Positions 25,332-55,654 of a DNA stretch of 64,000 nt are shown one piece after another; the stretch's first letter is position 1, and each line of letters starts with the position of its first letter. The stretch is from Gemmatimonadales bacterium (GTDB lineage: Bacteria; Gemmatimonadota; Gemmatimonadetes; Gemmatimonadales; GWC2-71-9). The notes beneath the pieces were generated by a model, which saw only the letters and a program-made list of their open reading frames with translations, was not told the DNA's origin and did not search any database. Made by a program: the position numbers and the translations under genes. The DNA is taken from the NCBI GenBank assembly GCA_035251445.1, contig DATFEG010000156.1, positions 3,528 through 67,527 on the forward strand. The letters are read 5' to 3'.

Positions 25332-25854
25332 CCAAAACCTCGCGCCCGTTCCCACTGCGCGCTTGCTCGTGTTTCGCGTGGGAGTGCTGTCATGCGCGGC
25401 CGAGGTCGATCAAGTGCGGGAGATTCTCCCGCGCCTCCCAACGACGCGTATTCCGGGCGCGCCTCCGGTCGTCGCAGGTCTCGTAAATGTTCGCGGCACG
25501 CTGGTGACCGTGGTGGAAGGGTGGCGTGCGTTAGGGCAGGACCCTCCGACGACGCCTCCGCTTCCCGATGCCACTGCAGGGTCGACGATCATCCTCGAGC
25601 TGGAGCGTTCCAGCTCGGCGGAAGGGGCGAACGAGCGCAGCCGGAAACTCATCGGGTTTACAGTGGACGCAGTGGTGGACATGCTGGCGGTGGGCGATGC
25701 CACGCTGGAGCACCGCGAAAGCCTCCCCGGCGTCGATCCCACGCTGGTAAAGGCGGTCGGGCGCCGCCAGGTTGGGGACGACTCTGGCGGGGGGAGCAAC
25801 CTGTTCATCGTGCTGAACGTGGCAGCTCTGCTGGGTCCGGTTCTGTCTAACTAA
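25324..25854 (+). CDS. cheW: CheW-like coupling protein (copy 1)
   Basis: The ATG at 25324 overlaps the rluD stop by 8 nt. The CheW fold pattern LLVFRVGVLSCAAEVDQVREILP...VNVRGTLVTVV is present, with a Pro-rich insertion. Confidence 0.85.
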   Translation: MSDQNLAPVPTARLLVFRVGVLSCAAEVDQVREILPRLPTTRIPGAPPVVAGLVNVRGTLVTVVEGWRALGQDPPTTPPLPDATAGSTIILELERSSSAEGANERSRKLIGFTVDAVVDMLAVGDATLEHRESLPGVDPTLVKAVGRRQVGDDSGGGSNLFIVLNVAALLGPVLSN

Positions 25855-25864: not shown

Positions 25865-26227
25865 GTGAGCCACACGGTTCTCGTCTGTGATGACGCCATC
25901 TTCATGCGGACTATGATCACGGATATCCTCGCGCAGGCAGGCTTCGAAGTGGTCGGCGAGGCCGAAACCGGGACGCAAGCCGTGGAGAAATACCGCCAGC
26001 TGAAGCCCGACCTGGTGACGATGGACATCGTGATGCCCGGCATGGGGGGTATCGATGCGGTTCGCGAGATCGTGAAGCACGACCCCGACGCGAAGATTCT
26101 CATGTGCAGCGCGATGGGGCAGCAGGCCCTCGTCGTCGAAGCGATTCAGGCCGGCGCCAAAGACTTCGTTGTCAAGCCGTTCCAACCCTCCCGCGTGCTC
26201 GAAGCCGTCCAGCGCGTTTTGGGATAG
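25865..26227 (+). CDS. cheY: CheY-like single-domain response regulator
   Basis: The 120-aa receiver has the DD, D(57)-equivalent MDIVMP and K (VVKPF) residues. GGAGCG lies 6 nt upstream of the GTG start. Confidence 0.92.
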   Translation: MSHTVLVCDDAIFMRTMITDILAQAGFEVVGEAETGTQAVEKYRQLKPDLVTMDIVMPGMGGIDAVREIVKHDPDAKILMCSAMGQQALVVEAIQAGAKDFVVKPFQPSRVLEAVQRVLG

Positions 26228-26233: not shown

Positions 26234-28141
26234 ATGGACCTGTCGCAGTACGCCGAGCTGTTCCTGGCTGAGAGTCGGGAGCACTTGAGCGCCTGCAATC
26301 AGCTGCTGCTCGAGTGGGAACGCCGGCCATCGTCTCCCGAGCCGGTGAGCGGGATCTTCCGCGCGGTGCACACGATGAAAGGGATGGCGGCGACCATGGG
26401 ATATGGTCGCGTTGCCGACCTCGCGCATCGCATGGAGAATCTGCTGGACCAGCTAAGGCGCGGCGGCAAGCCACCGACTGATGCTACTCTGGAACTGCTC
26501 TTCCGTGCGACCGACGCGTTGGAGAAAGCGGTCGCTCTGGCGGTGGCCGGCCGCGAGCGCGAGCTCGACATCGCGTCGCTCGTCGCAGAATTTGACCACG
26601 CTGTCTCGGCCGGCGCTTCACCCGCCGCCGCTTCATCTACCGTCGCCTCATCTACCGTCGCCTCACCTCCCGTCGCCTCATCTCCCGTCGCCTCATCTCC
26701 CGTCGCCTCACCCGCTCGCCTCATTCACGTAGCCATCCGCCCTGAAACGCCGTTAAAAGGCGGCCGCGCCATGCTCGTGCTTCGTAAGGCGCAGACCCTG
26801 GGGACGGTGCAGCGGGTTCAGCCGCCCCCCACAGCGTTCGAGTCGGACGATTTCGATGGGAATGTGGCGTTCGAGCTGCACAGCTCCGCTGCGTCCCCTG
26901 AGATCGAGGCGGCGCTGCATGCGGTCGGCGACGTGGAGCGCGTCTCGATCGGCGGTAGTGAGGGCCGAGTCGATGACGCCGCGGGCGGGCGCAGCCGGCA
27001 CATCCGCGTCGACTTACGTCGCCTGGATACGCTGATGGACCTGATCGGGGAGCTCGTGACCGAGCGCGGCCGTCTGAACGAGGTGGCGGGCCGCTTGGCT
27101 GGTCAGGATCAGGCGATCGACGATATCGCGGTCCAGATCTCGCGCCTGTCCGCCGATCTCCAGAACGAGATCATTCAGGCACGCATGACGCCGGTGTGGC
27201 AGATCTTCGACCGTTTTCCGCGGCTCGTGCGCGACGTCGCGCGCCAGCTGGACAAAGACGTCGCGTTGCGCGTGGAAGGAAAGGAGATCGAGCTTGATCG
27301 GGCCATTCTCGACGAGCTCGGTGACCCGTTGGTGCACCTGCTGCGGAATGCCGTCGATCATGGAATCGAGCCACCCGCTGAACGCAAGCGGCACAAGAAG
27401 AACCCCGAAGGCCAGATCGTGCTCGCCGCGGTCCGTGAGCGCAACAGCGTCGCGATCAGCATCTCCGATGACGGCCGCGGTATCGATCGAGCGAGCATTC
27501 TCCAAAAAGCGAAGCGCGAGGGGATCGTGTCACCGCATGTCGAGTCGCTGTCCGACGATCAGCTCCTGCGCGTGCTCGCCCGGCCGGGCTTCACGACGGC
27601 CGGCACGGTCACGGCGGTGTCGGGCCGGGGCGTGGGAATCGATGTCGTCATGACGCGGCTCCGCACGCTCGGGGGATCGATCGAGATCCGGACGGAAACA
27701 GGGAAAGGCACGACGTTCATGCTGCGGCTTCCCGTCACGCTCGCCATCGTGCGCGCGCTGATCGCGGCCGTCGGGCACGAGCGGTACGCGCTGCCCCTGA
27801 CGTACGTCGCCGAAACGGTGGAGTTCGGTACGACCGCGCGGACGACGATGGAAGGGCGGGATGCGATCGTTCTGCGGGACCGCGTGGTGCCCCTCGTGGA
27901 TCTCCGCACGCTGCTGGGAACAAACGGCGGCGCTCCCGCGCCCCCTCCGCGGCGCCCCGTTATCGTGCTCGAAATGGGTGAGCGCCGCGCGGGTATCGTC
28001 GTCGACGGAATGCTCAGCCAGCAGGAGATTGTGGTGAAGGGATTCGACGCACCGCAGGGCACGTTGCCGATATTCAGCGGCGCCACGATCCTGGGGGATG
28101 GCGTGCCGACGTTGATATTGGATGCGGCGGGGCTGGTGTGA
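26234..28141 (+). CDS. cheA: Chemotaxis histidine kinase CheA
   Basis: It has an Hpt domain (FRAVHTMKGMAATMG), a dimerisation region, an HATPase domain (N, G1, G2 boxes) and a C-terminal CheW-like domain. A repetitive Ala/Ser/Pro linker follows P1. Confidence 0.95.
   Translation: MDLSQYAELFLAESREHLSACNQLLLEWERRPSSPEPVSGIFRAVHTMKGMAATMGYGRVADLAHRMENLLDQLRRGGKPPTDATLELLFRATDALEKAVALAVAGRERELDIASLVAEFDHAVSAGASPAAASSTVASSTVASPPVASSPVASSPVASPARLIHVAIRPETPLKGGRAMLVLRKAQTLGTVQRVQPPPTAFESDDFDGNVAFELHSSAASPEIEAALHAVGDVERVSIGGSEGRVDDAAGGRSRHIRVDLRRLDTLMDLIGELVTERGRLNEVAGRLAGQDQAIDDIAVQISRLSADLQNEIIQARMTPVWQIFDRFPRLVRDVARQLDKDVALRVEGKEIELDRAILDELGDPLVHLLRNAVDHGIEPPAERKRHKKNPEGQIVLAAVRERNSVAISISDDGRGIDRASILQKAKREGIVSPHVESLSDDQLLRVLARPGFTTAGTVTAVSGRGVGIDVVMTRLRTLGGSIEIRTETGKGTTFMLRLPVTLAIVRALIAAVGHERYALPLTYVAETVEFGTTARTTMEGRDAIVLRDRVVPLVDLRTLLGTNGGAPAPPPRRPVIVLEMGERRAGIVVDGMLSQQEIVVKGFDAPQGTLPIFSGATILGDGVPTLILDAAGLV
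26633..26720 (+). repeat. 15-nt in-frame tandem repeat (about 5.8 copies) in the CheA P1 linker
   Basis: The unit tcatctaccgtcgcc and its variants encode SSTVA SSTVA SPPVA SSPVA SSPVA SP. Confidence 0.92.
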
Positions 28142-28257: not shown

Positions 28258-28875
28258 GTGGAAGACGTTCGTGATCTAAAAGCACTGCAGCTCGATGCGC
28301 TCAAGGAAGTCGCCAACATCGGCGCGGGTCACGCGGCGACCGCACTGTCGCAGCTGACGCAGCGCCGCGTGATGATCTCCGTTCCCGAGATCAACATCGC
28401 GCGACTCGAAGACGTCGCTGGCGTACTCGGCGATCCTCAGGAAGTGGTGGCCGCCGTGTTGATGCACATGCTCGGCGACTTGACCGGGCGGACGCTGCTG
28501 CTCTTTCCCGAGCCCGTCGCACGGCGGCTGTGCGACATGCTTCTCAAGCGCCCACTGGGAACAACCAAGGAATTTGGCACGCTCGAGCAATCCTGTCTGA
28601 AGGAGTCCGGCAACATTCTCTCGGGTGCCTACATGAACGCGTTGTCGGAATTCATGGGCATGCTGCTCCTGCCGTCCGTGCCGAGTCTCGTTGTCGATCT
28701 TTCGGCGGCGGTCTTGACGACGACGTATTTGAATTTCGGGCACGACCGCGACGTCGTCTTTTGTGTCGAGACGGAATTCAGAATCGACAGCCGGGACGGC
28801 CTGCGCGGTCATTTCCTGCTCCTGCCCGATCTGGCGTCTCTCAAGGCTATTTTCGACGCCATCCGCTTGACTTGA
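28258..28875 (+). CDS. cheC: CheC-family CheY-P phosphatase
   Basis: It has two D/S-x3-E-x2-N-x22-P active-site motifs (DALKEVANIG...VP and SCLKESGNIL...VP). It starts with GTG, and GGGAG lies 7 nt upstream. Confidence 0.85.
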   Translation: MEDVRDLKALQLDALKEVANIGAGHAATALSQLTQRRVMISVPEINIARLEDVAGVLGDPQEVVAAVLMHMLGDLTGRTLLLFPEPVARRLCDMLLKRPLGTTKEFGTLEQSCLKESGNILSGAYMNALSEFMGMLLLPSVPSLVVDLSAAVLTTTYLNFGHDRDVVFCVETEFRIDSRDGLRGHFLLLPDLASLKAIFDAIRLT

Positions 28876-31580
28876 TCGTCTCCGAGCGCGACCTCACGGT
28901 GTTGAGGTCATTTTCCCGCCGGATCGACCCGTCGGACGCGGGCGCGCACAACAATCTCGGCGTTTTGTACTACCAGAAGGGACTCGTCCCCGAGGCCATC
29001 GAGCAGTTTACGCGCGCGCTCGAGCTCGACCCGCGCATGCAGGTGGCGCAGCGTAACCTCGAGATTGCCTATCACAACACGGGCTACTACGACCGGCGCG
29101 TCGCCGAGCTGCAGGAGCGGCTGCGCCAGGCGCCCGACGATCGCGACGCGCGCTGGGAGCTGGGCCGCACGTACGCCATCCTCGCTGCCTTCGACGAAGC
29201 GGTGGCGGAGTTCGAGGAGCTGCTCGCCCATAAGCCGAACGACGTCGCGGCGATCATTCAGCTGGGACTCGCCGAGAAAGCGCGCGGCCGGCTGGAGGTC
29301 GCGACGGAGTGGTTCAGCCGCGCGGTCGAGCAGGATCCCGCGTCGACGGTCGTCCACTTTTACCTGGGCGAGGTTTACTACAACCGCGGGCTGAACGAGC
29401 CCGCGCTCGCGGCGCTCGAGCGCGCGGTCTCGCTGAACCCCGACAACGCCAATGCGCACTATTTGATGGCGTTCGTCCTCGGCGACATGGGGCGCCACCA
29501 GGATGCACGCGCCGCGTCCAAGCGGGCGATTCAACTCAATCCACCCCTCGCCCGCGCGCAGACGAACCTGTCGCTGGAGCGCTATCGCGCCGAGCGGCAA
29601 TCGGCCGAGCACCGCCTGCGGGCGAGTCCCGCCCCGGAGGTCGCCGAAGGTCACGAGCTGGCCCACTTCAACCTCGGGCTCGCGTTCCGGCAGAAAGGCT
29701 ATTACACGGAGGCGTTGCGCGAATATCGGCTGGCCCTCGAGCGCGGCGAGGACCGCCGGCTGGTGCGTCAGGCGATGGCCGAAGTGCACCTGCTGAAACA
29801 CGACGTTGCCGACGCGCTCGAGCTGTATGAAGCGCTGATTCACGAGGTGCCGGACTCGCCGAAGCTGTGGAACGAGCGCGGCGTGGTATTGCACCAGGCG
29901 GGTCGCGCGGCGGAGGCGCTGGCCTCGTATCGGCAGGCGACCGACGTCGATCCACGCTACGCGCTGGCGTGGAACAACGTCGGTGTCGTGCTCGCGCATC
30001 AGCGCGACGCCGAAGACGCGATCCAGGCGTTTCGCAAGGCGTTGCAGCTGTCGTCCGCCTTCGCTGCCGCGCGGCTCAATCTCGCGTTATTGCTCACCCA
30101 TCTGCGCCGCTTCCAGCTCGCGCTCGAGGCCTATCGGCAAGTGCTGTCGGATCAACCGGCGTCTGCGCCCGCGTGGAACGGCGTCGGGCTCGTGCTCGTC
30201 GAGTTGAAGCGTTTTGTGGATGCGCGGAACGCATTCGTGCGCGCGGTCGAGGCGGACCCGCAGAACGCCGGTGCGCACTACAACCTCAGCTTCACACTTT
30301 CGAATCTCGGCGATTTCGACGGCGCGTTGCGTGCCACCAAGCGCGCGCTCGAGCTCGACCCCTATTACGTCTCGCAGAAGTTCGCGCTCGCCATCGACCT
30401 GCAGTACGAAACGGTCTCGATCGGGATCATCCCGGAGATCTCCGCCGACGTCGCTGCCGAGAGCCTTGCAGGCGAGTTTGCATTCGACCAGCGGCTGCTC
30501 GACAACATCTTCAAGGAGCTGGCGCCCGCGGCGGCCGCGGCCACGACCGCGCCGCAAGCGCCCGCCGGCATCGCGAAGCGGGCCGAGGACCCCCTGGCGC
30601 TCGCCCGTGACTATGTGAGCAAGGGAATGATGGATCTCGCGGTCGCCGAGACGATGCGCGCCGTGCAGCGCGGCGCCGATCGCGGCCGCGCGGCCACGCT
30701 GCTGGGCGAGATCTACGCGCGTCGCGGCTTGCACGGCGAGGCGCTGGAGCGCTACGGCGAAGCCCGCACACTCGATGCTGCCAATGCCGCCGCGGCGCTC
30801 GGGGAAGTGAAGAGCCTGCTCGCAATGCAGCGCCCCACCGAGGCGCTGCCCCTCGCCGAAGCCCTCGTGACCCGCATGCCCGATGATGTCGAGGTGCTGG
30901 TTGGTGTTGCGAAGGCGCGCGCCGCGACCGGGGACGCCGCCGGCGCGCTGACCGCGTTGCAGCGGGCCCAGACGCGCGCACCCGCGCGCGCCGATCTGCA
31001 CAAACTGCAGGGCGACATCGCGCTCAAGGTGGGCGAGCGCCAGGGCGCGCGGCAGGCGTATCGTGCCGCGCTCGATCTGGATAAGGGCTTCGTGCAGGTC
31101 TGGCTCGATCTCGGCCGGCTGCACGAGCACGACGAAGAGTGGCGGCTGGCGCAGCAGGCGTATGAAGAGGCGCTCGAGGCGTTGCCCACGTTTCACGAGG
31201 CGTCGCTCGCGCTGGCCGACCTGTTGCGCCGCACCGGCAGCGTGCGCTCCGCCGTCGTGCGGCTCGCGGACATGCTGGAGCAGGATCCGTACGATCTCGA
31301 CGCGTTGCTGCTCCTGGGCCGCGCGCTGCTGGATGACAAGCGCAACGAAGAGGCGCTCGAGGCGTTCCGGCGTGTGCTCAAATTCGACGCCGAGCACGCG
31401 GGTGCGCTTTTCTACCTGGGCGCGACGCTCGCGCGCCTGCAGCGCTACGCCGACGCCGTCGACGCCTGGGAGCGCGTGACGCGCCTCGATCCGGGGGGTC
31501 CCTTCGCGCAACGCGCGCGGATGCACGCGCGGACCGCGCTCGATCTGCAGCACATCTTCTCCACGCCGGATGCGGCCTGA
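28872..31580 (+). CDS. Large TPR-repeat protein (~900 aa)
   Basis: TPR motifs (A/G/Y/W periodicity, xxAxxxYxxALxxxP) run continuously throughout. The probable TTG at 28872 overlaps the cheC stop, with GTG at 28899 as an alternative. The upstream 114 codons of the track ORF overlap cheC and are discounted. Confidence 0.8.
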   Translation: MIVSERDLTVLRSFSRRIDPSDAGAHNNLGVLYYQKGLVPEAIEQFTRALELDPRMQVAQRNLEIAYHNTGYYDRRVAELQERLRQAPDDRDARWELGRTYAILAAFDEAVAEFEELLAHKPNDVAAIIQLGLAEKARGRLEVATEWFSRAVEQDPASTVVHFYLGEVYYNRGLNEPALAALERAVSLNPDNANAHYLMAFVLGDMGRHQDARAASKRAIQLNPPLARAQTNLSLERYRAERQSAEHRLRASPAPEVAEGHELAHFNLGLAFRQKGYYTEALREYRLALERGEDRRLVRQAMAEVHLLKHDVADALELYEALIHEVPDSPKLWNERGVVLHQAGRAAEALASYRQATDVDPRYALAWNNVGVVLAHQRDAEDAIQAFRKALQLSSAFAAARLNLALLLTHLRRFQLALEAYRQVLSDQPASAPAWNGVGLVLVELKRFVDARNAFVRAVEADPQNAGAHYNLSFTLSNLGDFDGALRATKRALELDPYYVSQKFALAIDLQYETVSIGIIPEISADVAAESLAGEFAFDQRLLDNIFKELAPAAAAATTAPQAPAGIAKRAEDPLALARDYVSKGMMDLAVAETMRAVQRGADRGRAATLLGEIYARRGLHGEALERYGEARTLDAANAAAALGEVKSLLAMQRPTEALPLAEALVTRMPDDVEVLVGVAKARAATGDAAGALTALQRAQTRAPARADLHKLQGDIALKVGERQGARQAYRAALDLDKGFVQVWLDLGRLHEHDEEWRLAQQAYEEALEALPTFHEASLALADLLRRTGSVRSAVVRLADMLEQDPYDLDALLLLGRALLDDKRNEEALEAFRRVLKFDAEHAGALFYLGATLARLQRYADAVDAWERVTRLDPGGPFAQRARMHARTALDLQHIFSTPDAA

Positions 31581-32719
31581 TGGCAATCGAAGGACCGCTG
31601 CGCGAGCTCGGCATCCACGACGTCTTCCAGCTGCTCGACCTGAGCCGGAAGACGGGCGCGCTGCGCGTCACCTCGGAGCTGCGTCATAACGAAGGGACGG
31701 TCTACTTCGACAACGGCGTCGTCGCCTCCGCCGAGATCCGCAGCAACCCTCATCCGTTGGGCGCGCTGCTCCTCCGGACCGGCAAGATCGCCGAGGCCGA
31801 CCTCGAGCGCGCGCGCGACATGCAGCAGCGCCTCGGCGACAAACGCCGTCTCGGCGAGATTCTCGTGAGCCTCGGTGTGATTACGCAACGTGAGGTGGAG
31901 CGGCAGGTCCGCTTTCAGATCGAGGAGGTCGTGTTCGAGGTGATGAGCTGGAACGAGGGCTACTTCTCTTTCAACGAGCAACCGCCGACGACATTCCCGA
32001 CCGAGGTATCGGTCCGCATTCCCGTCGAAGCGCTGTTGATGGAAGGCGCGCGGCGCATCGACGAATGGTCGCGGATCGAAAGCCGGATTCCGCACATCGG
32101 CGTAGTGCCCTCGCTCGCCCCTGCGCCGGAAGCGGGCGGGGGGGAGCTGGATCTCCTGCCGCCGGAATGGGAAGTGCTGGCGCTGATCGACGGCGCGCGG
32201 TCGGTGCGGGATCTCGCGAGCGAGCTTGGCCGCTCGGACTTCGAGGTGTCGAAAACGCTGTTTGGTCTCGAGAGCGCCGGCGTCATCGTCATCATGGATC
32301 CGGGGAGCGCCCGGCGCGGCCGGGCCGGCGTGAGCGCCGACCTCACGGAGCTCGTGGCGAAGGCTGAGCGCGCGCTGCACGCGAAAGACCTCGATGCCGC
32401 TCGCGCCGCGGCGGAACAGGCGGGCGCGCTGCAGCCACACGACGCGACCATCTACTTGCTGCTCGGTCGCGTCCATCTGGCCCAGGGTCACGCGTCGTCG
32501 GCGGCGGAACAGCTCCGCCGCGCGGTGCGGCTGGACCCGCTCTTGCCCGCGGCGTATCGCGTGCTCGGTTTCGCGCTTATCGCGATGGGCCGCTTTGCCG
32601 AAGCGCTGGCGAGCTGGGATCAGTGGGATCGCCTCGCGGCCCGCAGTGCCGACGAAGAAGCGCAGCGTCCCAACGTCGAGCGCGCGCGCCAGGCGGCCAG
32701 GGTGTTCGCCTTTGGCTGA
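31580..32719 (+). CDS. DUF4388 (PATAN-like) domain protein with C-terminal TPRs
   Basis: It has the N-terminal signature GxLxExxxxDVxQLLxLxxKTGxLxV, which I recognise as DUF4388, followed by a winged-helix-like middle region and TPRs. It is a paralogue of the gene at 36937. Confidence 0.72.
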   Translation: MAIEGPLRELGIHDVFQLLDLSRKTGALRVTSELRHNEGTVYFDNGVVASAEIRSNPHPLGALLLRTGKIAEADLERARDMQQRLGDKRRLGEILVSLGVITQREVERQVRFQIEEVVFEVMSWNEGYFSFNEQPPTTFPTEVSVRIPVEALLMEGARRIDEWSRIESRIPHIGVVPSLAPAPEAGGGELDLLPPEWEVLALIDGARSVRDLASELGRSDFEVSKTLFGLESAGVIVIMDPGSARRGRAGVSADLTELVAKAERALHAKDLDAARAAAEQAGALQPHDATIYLLLGRVHLAQGHASSAAEQLRRAVRLDPLLPAAYRVLGFALIAMGRFAEALASWDQWDRLAARSADEEAQRPNVERARQAARVFAFG

Positions 32720-33551
32720 CGACATCCGCGCGCTTTCCGCGCAGCTCGCACAGGACCCGCAGAGTCTGGTCTTCCTGCGCCTCGGTGAAGCGCTGCGCCG
32801 CAAGGGCCAGCTGGATGCGGCTCTGCGTGTGGCGGTCAACGGCCTCGAGCGGCATCCGCACCTGGCCGACGCGCACGATCTCTACGCCCGGGTGCTGACC
32901 GATAAGCACGATTACGAGCGGGCGTTCGACGAATGGGACATGGCCGTCCGCATCGCCCCGAAGCACACCGGGGCTCTGAAAGGGCTCGCGTTTCTCTATT
33001 TCAAGGTCGGGGACCTCGCGCAGGCCGAAGCGCACCTCGAGGCCGCGCGCAAAGTGGAGCCGGATGATCCGAGCATCGACCAAGCGTTTGAAATGATTCG
33101 CGGCGGTGCCAAAGCAGTTGCCGCTCCCCCCCCCTCGCCGCCGCCTCAATCGCCGCCCTCCGCCGCCCCAGCGAGCGGCGGGACTCTCGATGAGGCACGA
33201 GTGTTCGCCGGCCTCGACGGCGCCAATGAAGGCCTGCTCCTCATCGACGGCGCGGGGCGAGTTCTCGGCGGCGCGTTGCGCGACAAGTCCGGCACGGATG
33301 TGACCGACGCGGTCGCGGCGTACCTTGGAGGTGTCTCCCAGGAGGCGGCGCGCACGGCAAAGCTGCTCGGCCTCGGCGCGTGGAATGGACTCTCGGCCGA
33401 AGGTCAGCAGGGGAACGTGCATCTCGCCCATCCCACGGCCGACGCTCTCTTGCTGGTCGTGCGCGAGCGCGGCGTTCCGCTCGGCCGGCTCACCATTTTG
33501 GCGCAGCGGGCCACCCTGATGGCGCGTCGCTGGTTGGAGAAAGAAACGTGA
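32712..33551 (+). CDS. TPR + Roadblock/LC7-like fusion protein
   Basis: The TTG at 32712 overlaps the preceding gene by 8 nt. N-terminal TPRs and a PPPSPPPQSPP linker are followed by a C-terminal ~110 aa with the Roadblock-like pattern (GLLLIDGAGRVLGG...ALLLVVRERGVPLGRL). Confidence 0.62.
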   Translation: MADDIRALSAQLAQDPQSLVFLRLGEALRRKGQLDAALRVAVNGLERHPHLADAHDLYARVLTDKHDYERAFDEWDMAVRIAPKHTGALKGLAFLYFKVGDLAQAEAHLEAARKVEPDDPSIDQAFEMIRGGAKAVAAPPPSPPPQSPPSAAPASGGTLDEARVFAGLDGANEGLLLIDGAGRVLGGALRDKSGTDVTDAVAAYLGGVSQEAARTAKLLGLGAWNGLSAEGQQGNVHLAHPTADALLLVVRERGVPLGRLTILAQRATLMARRWLEKET

Positions 33552-33895
33552 GTGCCGCGCTCGACCTGATCACGCGCGTCCGCGGAGTGCGCGGGGCGAT
33601 GCTCGTCTCAGCCGAGGATGGGCTCATCGTCGCCGAACAGTTGATGGAAGGCATCAAGGGCCGGGCGGTGGCCGCGTTGGCGGCGAGCCTCGCGGGCCGG
33701 CTGCAGCGCGCGATGGCGGCCGCGGGCATCGGCTCGAGCGTATTTTGGCACTTGCAAGGCGAGCAGGGGGCGTTGCTGGTCGTCCCGGGTGGCACCGCCG
33801 CGGGAGGCATTTTGGTCGTCGCCGTCGCGGAGCCCGACGTGAACATCGGACTCGTGCGACTGGAGCTGCTGCGCGCCGCCGAGGCGTTTGTATGA
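33548..33895 (+). CDS. Roadblock/LC7 domain protein
   Basis: The GTG at 33548 overlaps the preceding stop as GTGA. The 115-aa ORF has the classic Roadblock pattern VRGVRGAMLVSAEDGLIVAE...GILVVAVAEPDVNIGLVRLEL. Confidence 0.72.
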   Translation: MSAALDLITRVRGVRGAMLVSAEDGLIVAEQLMEGIKGRAVAALAASLAGRLQRAMAAAGIGSSVFWHLQGEQGALLVVPGGTAAGGILVVAVAEPDVNIGLVRLELLRAAEAFV

Positions 33896-34368
33896 GCCCG
33901 CACACGCGCGCGGTCGAGAGCTGGACGCTGCAGCCGCTCACCGATTTCGTACGCGAGGCCTCGGTCCGCATGGTGCTGGTGTTGACCCCAGCGGGGCAGG
34001 TGTTGGCGCAGTCGGGCTTTTCGCGCGCAGTCGACGTGATGTCGGCGGCAGCGCTCGCGGCAGCGATCGTCGCGTCCACCGGCGAGCTGGCGCGCCAGCT
34101 GCGACAACCGCCGTTTGCTGCACTGAGCCACCAGGGCCGCAAGCACGGGTTCTTCCTCGCGTCCTCTTCGTCCGAGCGCGGGACGCTGGCGGTGCTCGCC
34201 GTGTACGATCTCGACGTTTCATCGCTCGGGTTGGTGCAGTTATTCTATGAGCAACTTGCAGCGGACCTGAAGGCGGCCAGCCCCAAAGGTGCCGTACCGA
34301 AGCAGGTGCTGGCCGCTGACTTCGAGCGCGAGCTCACGGACAGCCTCAATACGCTGTTTGGGAGATAG
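33892..34368 (+). CDS. mglB: MglB-like Roadblock protein (putative MglA GAP)
   Basis: The ATG at 33892 overlaps the preceding stop as ATGA. The 158-aa ORF lies immediately upstream of mglA, as in the Myxococcus mglBA operon. SLGLVQLFYEQLAADL and the C-terminal TDSLNTLFG mirror MglB SLGLVRLRIKKASDEL and DDIDNLFSE as I recall them. Confidence 0.68.
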   Translation: MSPHTRAVESWTLQPLTDFVREASVRMVLVLTPAGQVLAQSGFSRAVDVMSAAALAAAIVASTGELARQLRQPPFAALSHQGRKHGFFLASSSSERGTLAVLAVYDLDVSSLGLVQLFYEQLAADLKAASPKGAVPKQVLAADFERELTDSLNTLFGR

Positions 34369-34370
34369 CC

Positions 34371-34973
34371 GTGTCCCTGGTCAACTTCACGAGCCGCGAG
34401 ATCACCTGCAAAATCGTCTACTACGGACCGGGCCGGTCCGGGAAGACGACCAATCTCCATTACATCTACGAGCGCGTACCGGAGACCCGTCGCGGCCGCA
34501 TGGTGTCGCTCGCCACGCAGACCGACCGCACGCTGTTCTTCGATTTCCTGCCGATCGACCTAGGTCAGATCTCCGGCTTTTCCACGCGCTTTCAGCTCTA
34601 CACCGTGCCGGGGCAGGTTTACTACAACGCCACTCGGCGACTCGTCCTGCAGGGCGCCGACGGTGTGGTGTTCGTTGGCGACAGCCAGGCGCGCCAGCTC
34701 GACGAGAATATCGAGAGCCTCCAAAACCTCCACAGCAACCTGCTGGAACACGGCGTCGACGTGCGCACGATGCCGCTGGTGATGCAATACAACAAACAGG
34801 ACCTGCCACGCGAGCTGATTCTCACGCCCGCCGAGCTGGACGACTCGCTGAACTTTCGCTCGGTGCCGTCCTTTTCGGCCGACGCGCTCCACGGCAAGGG
34901 AGTATTCGAGACACTGAAGAGCATCTCGGAGCTCGTGCTGAAGAAGCTGGCTGCGGGGAGCCCGGCGGCATGA
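34371..34973 (+). CDS. mglA: MglA-family Ras-like small GTPase
   Basis: The 200-aa ORF has REITCKIVYYGPGRSGKTTNLHYIY (P-loop), DRTLFFDFLP, YTVPGQVYY (switch 2) and QYNKQDL (NKxD). It is near-colinear with M. xanthus MglA. Confidence 0.92.
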   Translation: MSLVNFTSREITCKIVYYGPGRSGKTTNLHYIYERVPETRRGRMVSLATQTDRTLFFDFLPIDLGQISGFSTRFQLYTVPGQVYYNATRRLVLQGADGVVFVGDSQARQLDENIESLQNLHSNLLEHGVDVRTMPLVMQYNKQDLPRELILTPAELDDSLNFRSVPSFSADALHGKGVFETLKSISELVLKKLAAGSPAA

Positions 34974-36937
34974 CCACCACGCTCAACCCCCGCTTCACGT
35001 TCGACACCTTCGTGGTGGGCGCGGCCAACCGCCTGGCGGTCACTGCCGGCCGGACGGTGGCCGAGAATCCCGGCTTCGCCTACAACCCGCTCTTCATCTA
35101 TAGTGGGTCTGGTCTCGGAAAGACGCATGTCATGATGGGGATCGGCCACGCGGCCAAGTCGCTCGCGCCGCAGCTGAACATCGAATACCTGACGTTGGAC
35201 GAATACGTCGAGGCATTTCACGCCGCCATCGCCGCGGGGCAGGGCGACGCCTTCCGGCGGCGCTTCCAAAACGTGGGCGTGCTGCTCGTCGACGACGTGC
35301 AATTCCTCACGAACCGCAAAGAGATGCAGGCCGAGCTGCTACGCCTGACCGAAGCGCTGCAGCAGGCCGGCCATCAGATTGTGTTGGCCAGCGACCGGCC
35401 GCCCGCCGAAATCGCTGACCTCGACGAACGGCTGATTTCCCGGTTCTCCGGCGGTCTGGTTGTCGACATCGGGGTCCCGGACTATGAGACGCGCGTCGCG
35501 ATTTTGCGGCGCAAAGCGGAGGGGCGGGGGATCGCGTTCCAGCCGGGTGTGCTCGAGACGATTGCGAAAATCGAGTTCCCGAATGTGCGCGAGCTGATGG
35601 GTGCGCTGAACCGGGTTGTGGCCTTCCAGGCCGTGCACGACTCGCCCGTCAACGAAGAAGCGGTGCGCAAGGTGCTCGGCGTCCCGGCCGCTGCCTCATT
35701 GGCCGCTGCCTCATCGGCCGCTGCCTCATCGGCCGCCGCCTCTCCGGCCGTCGCCTCACCCGACGAGTTCTCGCAGTTTCTCACTGACGTCACCGCCAAT
35801 GTGGGAAAGGCCGTCGAGGCCTGGCGCGCGCGCGTGGCCGAAGCGGTGATGCGTTGGCAGGGGGAAGGCTATCGTACCGGACGTCTCGAGCAGCTCCTGG
35901 ATCGAAACAAGCCGGCGGCGGTGGACGACGAGATCGACGCCTACGTACGGGATGTGGAGCGGCTCAAGGCGCTCGAGGCGGAAGTCGCGACGCTGGATCC
36001 GCGGGTCGCGGGTGACAAAGTCTTCCACGATCCGGACCGCATGGACGAAGCCGAAGCGGCCGCCGCCCGGGTGCGCGAGGGCGCGGCGCCGCCGCCTGCC
36101 CCGTCGGGTGCGTTTCCGCTCGAAAGTTTTCGCGCGGGCCCGTCCAACGAGGTCGCGCTCAGCGCGGCGCGCGATGTCATTGCGAAACCGGGCAAGAAGT
36201 ACAATCCGCTCGTCATCGTCGGCAACAGCGGGCTGGGGAAGACGCACCTCCTGAACGCAATCGGCCTGGAGCTGTCGAAGAAAAGAGGCGCGATCGTGGC
36301 GTGTCTGTCCACGCAGGCGTTTGTGGACGAGCTGATCGCGGCGATCGACGGCAACCGCGTGGATTGGTGGCGCGCACGCTATCGGCGGTGCACGGCGCTC
36401 GTGCTCGATGACATCCAGCTTCTCGCCGGCAAGCAGCGCACGCAGGAAGAGCTGTTCAATCTCTTCAACCAGTTCCTCGACGCCGAGCGCCAACTTGTGT
36501 TCTCCGCGCCCGCGCATCCCAAGACCCTGGAAGGGCTGGAGGAGCGCATTGTGTCCCGGCTCGAGGGCGGGCTCGTCGCGGAGCTGGGTGAGCCCGACAA
36601 GGACGTGCGCCGCAGCGCGCTGGAGGGCCTGCTCCGGCAGCAACGCGTGATGACGGATTCCGCGTTGCTGGATTATCTCGCCGACCGCCCGGTGGATTCT
36701 GTCCGCAGCCTGACGGCACTCGTGCAGCGGGTCCTCGAGGCGGCGGCCGCGCAAGACGCGCCGGTCACGGCGGCTCTCGCGCGGGACGTGCTCGAAGGCT
36801 CAGTTGCGGCGCGCCGCTCGCTCGGTGCCCGGACCAGCGGCCTCGTGGTCTCGAGCGCGGGCGGCGTGCGCAGCCGCGAAAAGATGGTGTGGGATTGGCC
36901 GACGGCCGCCGACCGCGTCATTGAGGACATCCGCTGA
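34970..36937 (+). CDS. Tandem DnaA-like AAA+ ATPase (two Bac_DnaA-type modules, no DNA-binding domain IV)
   Basis: The ATG at 34970 overlaps the mglA stop as ATGA. Module 1 has NPRFTFDTFVVGAANRLA, Walker A GSGLGKTH, Walker B LLVDDVQFL, LASDRPP, SRFSGGLVVDI and NVRELMGALNRV. Module 2 has ESFRAGPSNEVA, GNSGLGKTH, LVLDDIQLL, SAPAHP, SRLEGGLVAEL and SVRSLTALVQRV. A repeat linker and a coiled-coil-like segment separate them. The protein ends without a DnaA_C helix-turn-helix. Confidence 0.8.
   Translation: MTTTLNPRFTFDTFVVGAANRLAVTAGRTVAENPGFAYNPLFIYSGSGLGKTHVMMGIGHAAKSLAPQLNIEYLTLDEYVEAFHAAIAAGQGDAFRRRFQNVGVLLVDDVQFLTNRKEMQAELLRLTEALQQAGHQIVLASDRPPAEIADLDERLISRFSGGLVVDIGVPDYETRVAILRRKAEGRGIAFQPGVLETIAKIEFPNVRELMGALNRVVAFQAVHDSPVNEEAVRKVLGVPAAASLAAASSAAASSAAASPAVASPDEFSQFLTDVTANVGKAVEAWRARVAEAVMRWQGEGYRTGRLEQLLDRNKPAAVDDEIDAYVRDVERLKALEAEVATLDPRVAGDKVFHDPDRMDEAEAAAARVREGAAPPPAPSGAFPLESFRAGPSNEVALSAARDVIAKPGKKYNPLVIVGNSGLGKTHLLNAIGLELSKKRGAIVACLSTQAFVDELIAAIDGNRVDWWRARYRRCTALVLDDIQLLAGKQRTQEELFNLFNQFLDAERQLVFSAPAHPKTLEGLEERIVSRLEGGLVAELGEPDKDVRRSALEGLLRQQRVMTDSALLDYLADRPVDSVRSLTALVQRVLEAAAAQDAPVTAALARDVLEGSVAARRSLGARTSGLVVSSAGGVRSREKMVWDWPTAADRVIEDIR
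35686..35760 (+). repeat. 15-nt in-frame tandem repeat (5 copies) in the linker of the DnaA-like protein
   Basis: The unit ggccgctgcctcatc and its variants encode AAASL AAASS AAASS AAASP AVASP. Its 3-prime end cgtcgcctcaccc is identical to the end of the CheA repeat. Confidence 0.92.
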
Positions 36938-38553
36938 TGGCGATCAAGGGCTCGCTGAAGGAAGCCTCGCTGCCGGACGTGCTCCAGCTGCTCGCGCTCG
37001 GGCAGAAAACCGGCTGCCTCTCGATCGCCGACCGCTCGAACTTCGGATACATCTACTTTGACCGGGGACGCATTGCCTACGCCTCCATCGTGAATCGCCG
37101 CGATCGGCTCGGCGACATTCTCGTCAAGCACGAGAAGATTTCGCAGGAGCAGCTGGATGCCGCGATCCACCGCCAGTCCAGGGAGCGCGACAGGAAGCTG
37201 GGCGAGATCCTCGTGACGCAAAGCGTGCTCACGCAACAGGAGCTCGAGCGCTACATGCGCATGCAGATCGAGGAATCGGTGTTCTACCTGTTCACGTGGA
37301 CACAAGGGACCTTCAATTTCGAGGCGGACGTTCGTCCGGAGCAGCAGGATTTCCTCGTCTCCATCAATCCCGAGTCGCTCCTGCTCGAGGGCGCGCGCCG
37401 CGTCGACGAATGGGGACTGATCGAGAAAAAGATTCCTTCCTTCGATCTCATCTTCCTCGTCGATCGGGACCGCCTCGCGATCAGTGATTCCACACTCACG
37501 GACGTGCAGGAGCGCCTGCTGGCGCTGCTGGACGGCTCGCGTGACGTGAATCAGGTCATCGAGGATTCCGGCCTGGGGGAGTTCGAAGTCGGCAAGGCGT
37601 TGTACGGCCTCGTCACCGCGGGCTTCCTGCATCGCGCGGGCCGAACGGCGGGAGCGGAAGACGCGAAGATGACGGACGCGCGCGTCGAAGAGCACCGTAA
37701 TCTCGGCATCGCCTTCTACAAGACGGGCATGTTGGACGAGGCCGCCCGGGAATTCCGCCGGGTGGCGGAGTTGCGGCCCGTCGACGGCAACGCGCACTTC
37801 TTCATCGGTCTCGTCGCGCTGAAGCAGGCGCGTTGGCGCGAGGCGATGGAGGCGCTGCGACTCGCGGCGGAGAAAGGCGGCTCGCGGCCCGCGGTGCTGC
37901 ACAACCTGGGACTCGCCTACGAGCAACTCGGTCGGCTCGCGGAAGCGGAGGCCGCCTACGCGGAGGCGGCGACGCGCGCCAAGACCGATCCGCGCGTGTA
38001 TGTGGGATGGGGTGTCGTGGCACTGAAGCGCGGTGACTACGCCGGTGCCGCGGGGCGACTCGACCGCGCGCGTGAGCTCTACGTGCAGCACGTGCCGCCG
38101 ATATGGTACTGGGCGCGCGTGCTGGCCGCCGCCGGCGCGGGCGATTTCGAGACGGCCGAGCAGATGGCGGGACAGGCGGTGGAGGCGTACCCGCAGAACG
38201 GCGTGCTACGCAACAACCTCGCCGTGCTGCTCGAGCTCGCGGGCGACTTGCCGCAGGCGGAGAATTTGGCGCGCGCCGCGCTCCGCGACGAGCCGTCACT
38301 GCCTCAGCTGTCCAAAAACCTCGGCGACCTCGCCTATCGCGCCTCCCGCTACGACGAGGCGTGGACTCTCTACCAGCGCGCGATCGAGCTCGCGCCCGAG
38401 TTGGGGGACGACATCTACTTCAAGCTCGGGAACATTGCGTACAAGCAAAACGACCGGCAGCAGGCGAGCGACCTCTGGCGCCGGGCACTCGAGCTGAATC
38501 CCAAGCACGAGCTCGTGAAAGCGAATCTCGACACGTTGAGCACGTTGTCGTGA
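36937..38553 (+). CDS. DUF4388 (PATAN-like) domain protein with C-terminal TPRs (second paralogue)
   Basis: Its N-terminus MAIKGSLKEASLPDVLQLLALGQKTGCLSI parallels MAIEGPLRELGIHDVFQLLDLSRKTGALRV in the gene at 31580. It has the same middle region and a longer TPR tail. Its start overlaps the preceding stop by 1 nt. Confidence 0.75.
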   Translation: MAIKGSLKEASLPDVLQLLALGQKTGCLSIADRSNFGYIYFDRGRIAYASIVNRRDRLGDILVKHEKISQEQLDAAIHRQSRERDRKLGEILVTQSVLTQQELERYMRMQIEESVFYLFTWTQGTFNFEADVRPEQQDFLVSINPESLLLEGARRVDEWGLIEKKIPSFDLIFLVDRDRLAISDSTLTDVQERLLALLDGSRDVNQVIEDSGLGEFEVGKALYGLVTAGFLHRAGRTAGAEDAKMTDARVEEHRNLGIAFYKTGMLDEAAREFRRVAELRPVDGNAHFFIGLVALKQARWREAMEALRLAAEKGGSRPAVLHNLGLAYEQLGRLAEAEAAYAEAATRAKTDPRVYVGWGVVALKRGDYAGAAGRLDRARELYVQHVPPIWYWARVLAAAGAGDFETAEQMAGQAVEAYPQNGVLRNNLAVLLELAGDLPQAENLARAALRDEPSLPQLSKNLGDLAYRASRYDEAWTLYQRAIELAPELGDDIYFKLGNIAYKQNDRQQASDLWRRALELNPKHELVKANLDTLSTLS

Positions 38554-39413
38554 GCCTGGAGGGCACGCTCGGGAAAGACGAACAGGGCTTCCACCAGCTC
38601 ACCGAGAAGGTCTCACGCGAGCGGGGCATCAGCTGCGGATCATACAAAGAAAAGTGTTTACGCCGCCGCATCGCGGTCCGCATGCGCGCGCGCGGCGTCC
38701 ACAGCTACGCCGATTACGCCCGGTTGCTCGATCGGGACGCGGGCGAATATCAAGAGCTCCTCGATGCGCTCACCATCAACGTCACGAAGTTCTTTCGCAA
38801 CGCCGAAACATGGGATGCGTTGCGTCCCTACCTTGTAGAGTTGTGGGCTGCCCGGCGGAGGGAAGGCGAGCCGCTCCGGATCTGGTCGGCGGGATGTGCC
38901 TCGGGTGAAGAGCCATACACGATCGCCGTGCTGCTCGCCGAAATCTTGGGCGAGGATCTCCGGCGGTCGTTCATCGATGCGACCGATATCGACCGGCTGA
39001 GCCTCGAGCGCACCCGCCAGGCGCAATACCCCGAGACCGCCTTCTCGGAGATGCCGGTGCACCTGAAGCGCCGCTACTTTGTGGACGGACGTCCGGTCGC
39101 GCGGATCGGCGAGGTCGTGCGGGTGCTCCACCACGATCTGACGCGGGAGCCGCCGCCGCGTTCCGTCTACGATCTCATCGTGTGTCGCAATGTCGCCATC
39201 TACTTCGAGCGCGACGCACAGGAGCGGCTGTATGGGACGTTCGCCACAGCCTTGCCGCCAGGCGGCGCGCTGCTGCTCGGGAAGGTCGAGACGCTGTTCG
39301 GCCCGGCGCGCGAGCGGCTCACACTCCTCGACCCGCGCGAGCGGATCTATGTGAAGCCGATCGGCAAAGCCTCGGCCCACCTCTCTGGAACCGAGAGGAT
39401 GGGTGAGGCCTGA
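38550..39413 (+). CDS. cheR: Chemotaxis protein methyltransferase CheR
   Basis: The GTG at 38550 overlaps the preceding stop as GTGA. It has the CheR N-terminal helical domain and the SAM site IWSAGCASGEEPYT. Confidence 0.9.
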   Translation: MSLEGTLGKDEQGFHQLTEKVSRERGISCGSYKEKCLRRRIAVRMRARGVHSYADYARLLDRDAGEYQELLDALTINVTKFFRNAETWDALRPYLVELWAARRREGEPLRIWSAGCASGEEPYTIAVLLAEILGEDLRRSFIDATDIDRLSLERTRQAQYPETAFSEMPVHLKRRYFVDGRPVARIGEVVRVLHHDLTREPPPRSVYDLIVCRNVAIYFERDAQERLYGTFATALPPGGALLLGKVETLFGPARERLTLLDPRERIYVKPIGKASAHLSGTERMGEA

Positions 39414-39421: not shown

Positions 39422-39892
39422 GTGGTCACCGTGGCTGACTGGGCAGCCGAGCGCGGGGATGGAGTCCTGGTGACCCTGGGGCTCGGCTCATGTGTCGCCA
39501 TCATGCTGCATGATCCGGAGAGCGGGGCCGGTGCGCTGGCTCACGTGCTCCTTCCCTCGACCAGCCTGGCACGCGACACCAGCAATCGCGCGAAGTTTCC
39601 GGAAACCGCCGTGCCGCTGATGATTGAACGCCTCACAGCACTTGGCGCCGATCCGCGACGCCTGTGCGCAAAGCTCGCCGGCGGCGCCAGCATGTTCAGC
39701 CAGCTCGTTACGCCCGGCACGATCCAGATGGGTGAGCGCAACGTGCTCGCGGCGCGCACCGCGCTGCGCCGCGCTGCCATTCCCATCGTTCGCGAAGCGG
39801 TCGGTGGGGAGCTCGGCCGCAGCATCCGCTTTCATGTGAAGGACGGCCGCGTCGAGATTCGGTCGGTGGGCGCCGATGTCCAGGTGATCTGA
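39422..39892 (+). CDS. cheD: Chemoreceptor glutamine deamidase CheD
   Basis: The 156-aa ORF has the [13 protein letters not shown] catalytic Cys region and HVLLP. Confidence 0.88.
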
Positions 39893-39897: not shown

Positions 39898-40998
39898 ATG
39901 CCATCCGAGCCGCGCCCGGCCGCCACCCGGCCCACGGTGCTCGTCGCCGACGACAGCGCCCTGATGCGGCGGGTGCTCGTCGATGTGCTCGGCGACGAGT
40001 TTCAGGTGGTCGCGACCGCACGCGACGGCATCGACGCGATCCGCAAGACCCACCGGTACAATCCCGACGTCGTCACGCTCGACCTCGAGATGCCGCAGCT
40101 CGACGGCCTCGGCGCCATCGGCTACATCATGTCGGAATCCCCGCGCCCCATCGTCGTCGTGAGCGCACACGCGGGGCCGGGCACAGCGACGGCCATCCGC
40201 GCGCTCGAGCTGGGTGCGGTCGAAATCGTCGCCAAGCCCCCACCGCCGGCTCACGCCCTCGCGCACTCGCGCGCCGCGCTCGCCACCTTGGGGCCTCAGC
40301 TTGTCACCGCGATTCATCGCGCGCTCGCAGCCGACGTTTCGCACGTCAAAGTGCTGGCTCGTCCACCGGCGCCCGTCGTGCATCCACCGGAGGTGGCATT
40401 GCGGGGCCGGGCGGGTCTGGTCGTTGGTGTTGCGGCGTCCACCGGTGGACCGCGCGCGCTCGCTGAGGTGATCCCGCGTCTGCCGACCGGCCGCGGCGCC
40501 GCGGTGCTCATTGTGCAGCACATGCCGCCCAAGTTCACGCGCAGTCTCGCCGAGCGACTCGATTCGATCAGCGCGTTGCGCGTTGTGGAGGCGGACGACG
40601 GAGCGCCGATCGTCGCCGACACGGCATACGTGGCGCCGGGCGATTATCATATGCGAGTGCGAACCGCTCACGATGGCCCGGTCATCGCGCTCGATCAGTC
40701 GACTCCCATCTGGGGCGTTCGTCCGGCCGCCGATCTCCTGTTCCACTCCATCGCGCAAGTGTACGGCGCGCGTGGCGTCGGTGTCGTGTTGACGGGGATG
40801 GGCCGGGACGGCGCGGAGGGGTTGCGCGCCATGCACGACGCAGGGGGCGCTGGTCTAGCCCAGGACCGCGAAACCGCCGTCACGCACGGGATGCCCGCGG
40901 CCGCGGTGCAGGCGGGTGGGGTCGATGCGGTGCTGCCGTTGGAGAAGATCGCGGACCGGGTCTGGGCGGAGTTGATGAAGAGGAATCCGCAGCGATGA
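39898..40998 (+). CDS. cheB: Chemotaxis response regulator protein-glutamate methylesterase CheB
   Basis: It has a receiver domain ([12 protein letters not shown]...TLDLEMP) and a methylesterase domain (ASTGGP, HMP, GMGRDGA). Confidence 0.93.
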
Positions 40999-45869: not shown

Positions 45870-45896
45870 CTCAGCGTCGGACGATCATCCATGAAG

Positions 45897-45924: not shown

Positions 45925-45959
45925 TATGTTTGAGAGTGCCATTGGTGGCTGAACGCGTG

Positions 45960-55651: not shown

Positions 55652-55654
55652 CAC

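Follow-up and report, generated by a model that had tools for sequence, protein, structure and literature searches.

A TPR-Roadblock fusion and a minimal Roadblock protein are encoded together with MglB and MglA in a conserved, che-embedded gene cluster of Gemmatimonadota

The front-rear polarity of Myxococcus depends on stacked dimers of two Roadblock proteins, MglB and MglC, and MglA-GTP controls the contact between these dimers. In M. xanthus, the MglC homodimer lies between RomR on the one side and two MglB dimers on the other (MglC2:(MglB2)2:RomR), and this stack is broken by MglA-GTP, an arrangement that was likened to the Roadblock heterodimers stacked upon each other in Ragulator and the Rag GTPases (PMC10329633). 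The route from the Frz chemosensory system to the polarity module of Myxococcus is still unsettled. According to the survey of Wuichet and Sogaard-Andersen (2015), MglA genes are mostly coupled to a gene for one MglB homologue, a small group-1 subset being coupled to two, and mglA occasionally has PATAN genes next to it, as in the Chloroflexus arrangement <PATAN>MglA<MglB-MglB (PMC4316618). The sole Gemmatimonadetes genome included in that survey, Gemmatimonas aurantiaca T-27, encodes two group-1 MglAs of 225 and 229 amino acids in the contexts MglB>MglA> and PATAN>MglA>-PATAN> (Table S2, PMC4316618). Neither of these is the arrangement of three Roadblock genes that we describe here, and our literature search retrieved no paper combining Gemmatimonadota with MglA. 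We analysed a stretch of 64 kb (contig DATFEG010000156.1; hereafter 'the window') with a G+C content of about 65% from a Gemmatimonadales metagenome-assembled genome, in which three open reading frames (ORFs) for Roadblock-type proteins, ORF1, ORF2 and ORF3, directly precede mglA.

ORF1 (positions 32712-33551, 279 amino acids, TTG start), ORF2 (33548-33895, 115 amino acids, GTG start), ORF3 (33892-34368, 158 amino acids, ATG start) and mglA (34371-34973, 200 amino acids, GTG start) are all present on the plus strand, both in the ORF list and in the raw sequence. ORF1 and ORF2 are joined at a GTGA (GTG at 33548, TGA at 33549-33551) with a GGAG 9 nucleotides upstream, ORF2 and ORF3 at an ATGA (33892-33895) with a GAGG upstream, and the GTG of mglA at 34371 is located 2 nucleotides past the stop codon of ORF3, again with a GGGAG upstream. 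On the 5' side, ORF1 with its TTG at 32712 overlaps by 8 nucleotides with the preceding gene, which encodes a PATAN domain and tetratricopeptide repeats (TPRs) and stops at 32717-32719, and on the 3' side the stop codon of mglA overlaps as ATGA with the start of a gene for an AAA+ protein. A preliminary description of this DNA had placed three coupled Roadblock-type ORFs before mglA, a view that is borne out by these junctions and by the identification of each product as a Roadblock protein. No other Roadblock or MglA paralogues were detected in the 64-kb window.

The product of ORF3 matches the Pfam Roadblock model PF03259 (Robl_LC7) with 33.6 bits at a cut-off of 23. Its single sequence retrieved M. 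xanthus MglB from the PDB with an E-value of 1.2e-7. When the ORF3 family profile was used, the significant PDB matches were all MglB chains (3.6e-14 for M. xanthus, about 1e-9 for T. thermophilus), and nothing besides MglB was found below an E-value of 0.3. The NCBIfam MglB model NF052242 could be aligned to its end in ORF3 (18-161 of 161 positions; E 2.7e-8), with a score of 34 bits that is far below the 200-bit equivalog cut-off. The protein is composed of the Roadblock core and a C-terminal tail, ...ADFERELtDSLNTLFGR, which is almost invariant across the family. The MglB-specific profile and the conserved tail thus support the earlier assignment of ORF3 as an MglB-like protein of 158 amino acids and, as judged from sequence, ORF3 is an MglB orthologue.

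MglA was matched over its full length by the MglA proteins of M. xanthus (E 3.5e-73) and T. thermophilus (3e-69). It keeps the P-loop GPGxSGKTT, the intrinsic arginine of the TDRTLFFDF motif (R53 in M. xanthus) and the TVPGQ G3 motif with Gln82, by which features it is classified as a group-1 MglA with an arginine finger of its own. The start codon of mglA showed an offset of 0 in 78 of 78 orthologues. The locus hence resembles the MglA/MglB systems of M. xanthus and T. thermophilus in the adjacency of mglB and mglA, in its group-1 MglA with the arginine and TVPGQ, and in an ORF3 with MglB-specific characters including the tail. It differs from these systems in that two more Roadblock genes precede mglB.

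The shorter of these two additional genes, ORF2, also gave a clear match to PF03259 (35.4 bits, cut-off 23), covering positions 6-89 of the 91 in the profile. In the PDB it matched the Thorarchaeota Roadblock protein 7f8m (E 2e-7), and its family profile retrieved an Asgard Roadblock protein with 5.6e-12, dynein light chain roadblock with 2e-7 and MglB with only 7e-4. The protein is without any C-terminal extension and without the C-terminal tail of MglB. These comparisons place ORF2 closer to the generic, dynein and Asgard Roadblocks than to MglB. The start codon in the orthologues of ORF2 is GTG in 46 cases and ATG in 35, and some orthologues have 5-9 additional N-terminal residues. The PF03259 score and the starts of the orthologues thus agree with the previous proposal of a minimal Roadblock protein of 115 amino acids that starts with the GTG at 33548.

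ORF1 is of a different build. Its residues 1-137 (32712-33122, plus strand) match TPR models of Pfam and carry three N-terminal TPRs, approximately residues 138-159 (33123-33188) represent a linker rich in Pro and Ala that is predicted to be disordered (predicted local distance difference test score, pLDDT, below 50 in AlphaFold2), and approximately residues 160-279 (33189-33548) encompass a Roadblock domain with a C-terminal helix. The latter domain, here referred to as ORF1c, was delineated by profile searches, by Pfam matches across the family, by AlphaFold2 and by Foldseek. The full ORF1 protein reaches only 15.4 bits against PF03259 (E 0.016), below the gathering cut-off of 23. The preliminary description had asked for a significant PF03259 match for both ORF1 and ORF2, which was obtained above the cut-off for ORF2 and not for ORF1, and because this sub-threshold match left the Roadblock assignment of ORF1 borderline, ORF1c was examined separately by searching with the C-terminal 130 residues. 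The isolated domain scored 17.7 bits (E 0.003), which is also below the cut-off, and its single sequence had just three matches at E<10 among the PDB sequences, all of them Thermus MglB (E 0.06-0.34).

When 1.84 billion representative proteins were searched exhaustively with this domain (E<=1e-3), 263 clusters at 50% identity were obtained, in which the ORF1c-type domain occupies the C-terminus of proteins of 250-400 amino acids. All of the 53 family members combined in alignment A1 match PF03259 at E<=1, the best one with 1.3e-9. Used as a profile against the PDB, A1 retrieved the Thorarchaeota Roadblock 7f8m with an E-value of 3.6e-7 and Thermus MglB with 1.4e-5, as well as Myxococcus MglB, CvnB5 and further Roadblock entries; the best 14 matches bear Roadblock-family names with the exception of Rv3364c, an entry named as a serine protease inhibitor. 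The AlphaFold2 model of ORF1c, also based on A1, has a pLDDT of 90.4 and a predicted template modelling score (pTM) of 0.83. It displays a short helix, two strands, a long helix, three strands and a long C-terminal helix (alpha-beta-beta-alpha-beta-beta-beta-alpha), and the 50 PDB matches listed by Foldseek for this model are all Roadblock, MglB or LAMTOR proteins with template modelling scores of 0.59-0.76. In the model of full-length ORF1, two confident domains were obtained, namely helical repeats at residues 2-136 and the Roadblock domain at residues 160-277; the overall pTM of 0.56 is as expected for domains predicted to be arranged like beads on a string. Thus, the Roadblock fold of ORF1 is supported by the family profile, AlphaFold2 and Foldseek, whereas its own match to PF03259 remains below threshold. 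Sequence and model together identify ORF1 as a TPR-linker-Roadblock fusion, the Roadblock domain of which is cryptic to Pfam in the Gemmatimonadales branch. Indeed, the members of this branch are annotated merely as "tetratricopeptide repeat protein", and Pfam-based surveys will therefore under-count the Roadblock partners of MglA.

The start codons of ORF1 and ORF2 require consideration, since ORFs that are long but spurious are common in DNA of high G+C content. In principle, ORF1, ORF2 or both could be miscalled ORFs or decaying duplicates, a view to which the TTG start of ORF1, the GTG start of ORF2 and the sub-threshold Roadblock match of ORF1 would lend themselves. However, the product of ORF1 is 100% identical to an NCBI protein of 279 amino acids, its homologues start with M-x-D-D-I-R aligned with residue 2 of ORF1, and the start takes the same place in the alignment in 75 of 82 orthologues, 67 of which use ATG. 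These observations support the TTG at 32712 as the start of ORF1, as was previously proposed. Moreover, a conserved start, mostly ATG in the orthologues of ORF1, confident fold predictions, a family of 263 clusters at 50% identity and dN/dS ratios (nonsynonymous to synonymous substitution rates) of 0.12-0.14 over 82 orthologues are not what would be expected for miscalled or decaying genes. Because of these conservation data we regard this explanation as refuted, and assign it a negligible probability.

The conservation analysis was based on 82 orthologous loci, 80 of which are Gemmatimonadales-like and two of which are distant (L081 and L082), and dN/dS was calculated against the copy in the window. 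The 80 loci correspond to the best 80 of 212 ORF1 relatives in GTDB (one genome per species; 7-sequence query alignment A3), and nearly all of these 80 are labelled Gemmatimonadales, Gemmatimonadaceae or Gemmatimonadota. As far as the contigs reach, the order cheY-cheA-cheC-TPR-PATAN-ORF1-ORF2-ORF3-mglA-2xDnaA-PATAN-cheR-cheD-cheB was unrearranged in all 80 loci, and none of the three Roadblock genes was ever missing from the orthologous loci. The overlap of 4 nucleotides is kept between ORF1 and ORF2 in 74 of 82 loci and between ORF2 and ORF3 in 77 of 81, and ORF3 and mglA are separated by 1-7 nucleotides in 77 of 78 loci, with an overlap of 1 nucleotide in the remaining one. The median dN/dS was 0.137 for ORF1, 0.123 for ORF2 and 0.145 for ORF3 (81-82 orthologues), and 0.067 for mglA. 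All four genes evolve under purifying selection and their order is fixed, and the sequence data mark ORF1, ORF2 and ORF3 as real, selected genes.

In the two distant loci, the order is PATAN-TPR > TPR-Roadblock > Roadblock (115 amino acids), and the relative of ORF1 shares 31-35% identity in the Roadblock domain. The longer contig, that of L081, goes on with MglB (164 amino acids) > MglA (202 amino acids) and ends beyond mglA. Relatives of the members of L081 and L082 are assigned by their annotation to Longimicrobiales, the phylum's other major lineage, and many of these Longimicrobiales relatives have already been given PF03259 and named "roadblock/LC7 domain-containing protein". Among the loci examined, no member of the ORF1 family was found outside Gemmatimonadota, apart from three (L031, L046 and L079) in which the same cluster occurs in Rokubacteria or Myxococcales bins. 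The ORF1 products of these three are 70-83% identical to the Gemmatimonadales query alignment, and the contigs are probably mis-binned Gemmatimonadales contigs. It should also be noted that three apparent ORF1c-ORF2 fusion proteins (P0177, P0204 and P0140) with tails that look out of frame, and an MglB/ORF1c chimera with the wrong gene order (P0148), were not used as evidence. All four probably represent frameshift or assembly artefacts at the 4-nucleotide gene overlaps.

The proposal made in the preliminary description thus stands as far as the anatomy is concerned: one Roadblock protein is tethered to TPRs, the ORFs lie back-to-back with mglA, their start and stop codons abut or overlap, and the order is conserved. 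A scan for promoters and terminators between 24.5 and 44 kb gave counts equal to the shuffled expectation (2 versus 1.6 and 10 versus 10.8, respectively), which weigh neither for nor against a single transcription unit. Compared with the neighbourhoods compiled by Wuichet and Sogaard-Andersen (2015), the Gemmatimonadales locus likewise has a group-1 MglA, more than one Roadblock gene and PATAN neighbours. However, that survey shows at most two coupled MglBs, no TPR-Roadblock fusion (TPR not appearing in its main text) and no embedding among che genes. The actinobacterial conservons (CvnA-D) are similar in that an operon couples a sensory kinase with a Roadblock protein and a GTPase of the MglA family. 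However, their GTPase belongs to group 2, they have just one Roadblock protein next to a membrane histidine kinase and a DUF742 protein, and they are without TPR, PATAN or Che proteins. As PATAN neighbours, MglC and the coupling of two MglBs to one GTPase are already known, the set of three Roadblock proteins is a phylum-wide variant and not a new kind of system.

We examined how the three Roadblock proteins relate to each other. The closest pair is formed by ORF1c and ORF2 (93% in hhalign, E 2.7e-7), followed in profile-profile comparisons by ORF2 and ORF3 (57%, E 1e-4), and the relation between ORF1c and ORF3 is marginal (E 0.011). By these measures the three genes are ancient paralogues and not recent duplicates. 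This distribution of similarities bears on the idea that the locus encodes three independent Roadblock homodimers, which, as paralogous regulators of the MglB type, would each bind MglA under different conditions or at different sites in the cell. The characterised bacterial Roadblock proteins MglB and MglC are indeed homodimers (PMC10329633), and published surveys include cases in Chloroflexi, Chlorobi and the group 3 systems of two MglBs being coupled to one MglA. Nevertheless, the paralogues are very old and dissimilar, the MglB-specific features including the C-terminal tail are kept by ORF3 only, the overlaps of 4 nucleotides suggest that the products assemble with each other in fixed amounts and are not used as alternatives, and no orthologous locus has dispensed with any of the three genes. 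We therefore consider three independent homodimers quite improbable.

A further distinction concerns the alpha2 patch with which MglB contacts MglA. In Thermus MglB, the double substitution A68/72R in this patch lowers the affinity for MglA tenfold and abolishes the stimulation of GTP hydrolysis that makes MglB a GTPase-activating protein (GAP); the Myxococcus equivalent is A64/G68R (PMC3199381). The invariant arginine of the ORF1c family (R65 in A1) falls on A72 of Thermus MglB in two independent alignments, and according to hhalign a conserved arginine of ORF2 shares this column (A72 in T. thermophilus, G68 in M. xanthus). This argues against ORF1 and ORF2 being canonical MglA-binding GAP platforms. 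ORF1 and ORF2 thus have neither MglB-specific similarity, as shown by the E-values of 7e-4 between ORF2 and MglB and 0.011 between ORF1c and ORF3 and by the missing MglB tail, nor a permissive alpha2 patch, which suggests that both lack the canonical platform for binding MglA. In ORF3, the equivalent of A64 is an alanine, and the equivalent of G68/A72 is a conserved glutamate, in contrast to the Gly or Ala of the characterised MglBs.

The same arginines are relevant to the suggestion, also contained in the preliminary description, that some of the Roadblock proteins form heterodimers with a co-GAP or exchange function. In such a case ORF1 and ORF2 would constitute a Ragulator-like heterodimer with a direct effect on MglA's nucleotide state, in the role of guanine nucleotide exchange factor (GEF) or co-GAP. 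The model of ORF1c matches MP1/p14 and LAMTOR subunits (Foldseek E about 3e-5), and ORF1 and ORF2 appear from the gene overlaps to be strictly co-transcribed with mglB and mglA. In Pfam scans, no RomX- or RomY-like gene was evident in the operon, so that an exchange or co-GAP function would need another source, and MglB itself has been reported to display both GAP and GEF behaviour. On the other hand, the fold match of ORF1c to LAMTOR is no better than that to other Roadblocks, MglB and Asgard Roadblocks scoring higher, and the conserved alpha2 arginine is located where an arginine disrupts the MglB-MglA interface. In addition, the group-1 MglA has its own arginine finger and glutamine, so that no catalytic residue need be supplied. 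A direct action of ORF1 and ORF2 on the nucleotide state of MglA therefore seems unlikely to us.

Altogether, we favour the view that the locus represents an elaborated form of the MglA/MglB polarity switch that is specific to Gemmatimonadota, is encoded in one translationally coupled unit and has an accessory layer composed of ORF1 and ORF2. The contacts of this layer are putative, and we rate the chances of this view being correct as about even. ORF3 would act as the usual MglB homodimer that binds MglA-GTP via its alpha2 platform, and it is most likely the GAP. ORF1 and ORF2 would not be further GAPs, but would form a second Roadblock layer, most simply as an ORF1:ORF2 heterodimer because no other pair of Roadblock domains among the three is as closely related. 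The docking site of this layer would be the MglB dimer, or MglB with bound MglA, in the way that MglC docks on MglB or LAMTOR is placed under the Rag GTPases. The TPR arm of ORF1 would tie the complex to the PATAN-TPR proteins, to a large TPR protein encoded upstream and to the tandem DnaA-like ATPase encoded downstream of mglA. Alternatively, this arm might bind MglA-GTP itself, as TPR effectors do: MglA-GTP is known to bind the three C-terminal TPRs of SgmX, and also the TPR protein Bd2492. The Che pathway, and possibly cyclic di-GMP (c-di-GMP), could then set where or when MglB inactivates MglA, with consequences for cell polarity or surface motility. By analogy with MglC or Ragulator, ORF1 and ORF2 are thus probably accessory, non-GAP Roadblock adaptors that link MglB and MglA to the TPR and PATAN scaffolds and to the Che proteins.

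Several observations weigh against this view. Firstly, ORF3 itself has a bulky conserved residue, the glutamate, at the G68/A72 position, which weakens the argument drawn from bulky alpha2 residues in ORF1 and ORF2, and the register of alpha2 rests on alignments at about 20% identity. Secondly, no MglC chain was found among the profile or fold matches of ORF1c and ORF2, and there is no specific similarity to MglC in these matches. Thirdly, ORF3 has not retained the KRK patch through which MglB is bound to MglC in Myxococcus, and the profile alignment reads Gln in place of R115 and Glu/Gln in place of K119/K120. Lastly, no pilus or gliding genes are present in the window, and cheC and cheD, both of which belong to the conserved cluster, are typical of flagellar-type Che systems.

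Of the known systems, MglC is functionally the nearest analogue of ORF1 and ORF2, being an accessory, non-GAP Roadblock protein that links MglB to a scaffold. It differs in being a homodimer encoded away from mglBA, whereas ORF1 and ORF2 are encoded beside mglBA, and no romR is present in the operon. As there was no specific sequence or fold match, membership of ORF2 or ORF1c in the MglC family was rejected, and the likeness to MglC, as far as the sequences tell, is one of logic and not of family membership. The resemblance to Ragulator/LAMTOR-Rag lies in the combination of several Roadblock-fold subunits with one small GTPase and in the match of the ORF1c model to MP1/p14 and LAMTOR. This similarity is at the level of the fold only (16-20% identity), MglA is not fused to a Roadblock domain, and the heterodimer in the present system is putative.

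The conserved unit extends well beyond the four genes discussed so far. The span considered in the preliminary description is just the centre of a larger conserved unit, a PATAN-TPR...PATAN-TPR module that is nested in a complete che operon. The upstream partner of ORF1 (31580-32719, plus strand, 379 amino acids) has a PATAN (DUF4388) domain (PF14332, E 2.4e-32) plus TPRs, and is kept directly 5' of ORF1 wherever the contig extends, including in L081 and L082. Downstream of mglA, the AAA+ gene (34970-36937, plus strand) encodes a protein of 655 amino acids with two DnaA/Hda-like domains (PF00308 twice, E 9e-101), each of which has a GxxGxGKT Walker A motif and a DD Walker B motif. It is followed by a second PATAN (DUF4388)-TPR gene (36937-38553, plus strand, 538 amino acids; PF14332 3.4e-39 plus TPRs), the position of which is conserved in related loci. 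The AAA+ protein matches TIGR00362 and Hda models, but neither the N-terminal domain nor the C-terminal DNA-binding domain of DnaA was matched in its 655 residues. It may therefore be misannotated as DnaA, its summed score exceeding the cut-off of the NCBIfam DnaA model.

The position of this gene allows for a further explanation, in which ORF1 and ORF2 regulate the tandem DnaA-like AAA+ protein and not MglA/MglB. The AAA+ gene is coupled to mglA by the ATGA and is kept after mglA in all Gemmatimonadales loci whose contigs reach that far, its conservation being assessed for the Gemmatimonadales loci alone as the L081 contig ends before this point. Furthermore, the Roadblock superfamily has been described as general NTPase regulators (Koonin and Aravind 2000, as cited in later papers). 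However, mglB and mglA separate ORF1 and ORF2 from the AAA+ gene. In addition, we know of no precedent for the regulation of an AAA+ protein by a Roadblock protein, and we consider this explanation very unlikely.

A role of the PATAN-TPR proteins as scaffolds or inputs of the proposed polarity switch is suggested by the properties of their domains elsewhere. In Synechocystis, PilB and PilC, the motor proteins of the pilus, are bound by PATAN domains, and such domains have also been noted as neighbours of mglA and mglB. The NCBIfam c-di-GMP motif NF053729, which is related to MshE and located within the PATAN insertion, was matched with 38.0 bits in the first and 51.3 bits in the second PATAN-TPR protein, at a cut-off of 38. 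A strict regular expression for the MshEN c-di-GMP motif gave no match, and by eye the 24-residue motifs fit just partly. On the basis of the NCBIfam match, an input of c-di-GMP via the PATAN-TPR proteins is possible.

The enclosing genes, identified by Pfam and ORF translations, begin on the plus strand with cheW (about 25324-25854), cheY (25865-26227), cheA (26234-28141) and cheC (28258-28875), followed by a gene for a TPR protein of about 900 amino acids (about 28878-31580). On the 3' side of the module they comprise, likewise on the plus strand, cheR (about 38544-39413), cheD (39422-39892), cheB (39898-40998) and two cheW genes (40995-41414 and 41327-41881), after which genes for a TPR protein, a peptidase-MA-like protein and another TPR protein complete the cluster, which spans 25324-45750. 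Most junctions across this unit of 20 genes overlap or nearly abut. Despite the presence of cheR, cheB and cheD, no signature of methyl-accepting chemotaxis proteins was found in the cluster or elsewhere in the 64-kb window. The Gemmatimonadales module thus sits inside a che operon, unlike mglBA of Myxococcus, which is unlinked to frz.

In its most far-reaching form, our interpretation would be that the operon encodes a complete chemosensory-to-polarity switch, in which a TPR-Roadblock:Roadblock heterodimer stacks on MglB as a counterpart of Ragulator-Rag and responds to the nucleotide state of MglA and, via the PATAN-TPR proteins, to Che or c-di-GMP signals. We put this forward tentatively, as it is rather unlikely to hold in full. 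If true, it would represent the first obligate Roadblock heterodimer in bacteria and a direct physical link between Che proteins and MglA. Irrespective of this, genes for MglA and for three different Roadblock proteins are united, in a phylum other than that of Myxococcus, with those for TPR and PATAN scaffolds and for a full Che pathway, in fixed order and with translational coupling. The cluster lends support to an ancient origin of multi-layer Roadblock assemblies around small GTPases, and it represents a compact set of candidate partners that might be reconstituted in vitro.

Lastly, the neighbours of the unit are ileS-lspA-rluD at one end and the mraW-ftsI-mur cluster at the other end. 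The latter belongs to a dcw cell-division cluster (mraW, ftsI, murE, murF and a murD-like gene) that is located directly downstream, at 45891-56737, and a gene for DivIVA is found upstream of the cluster, in the region 18816-19409.

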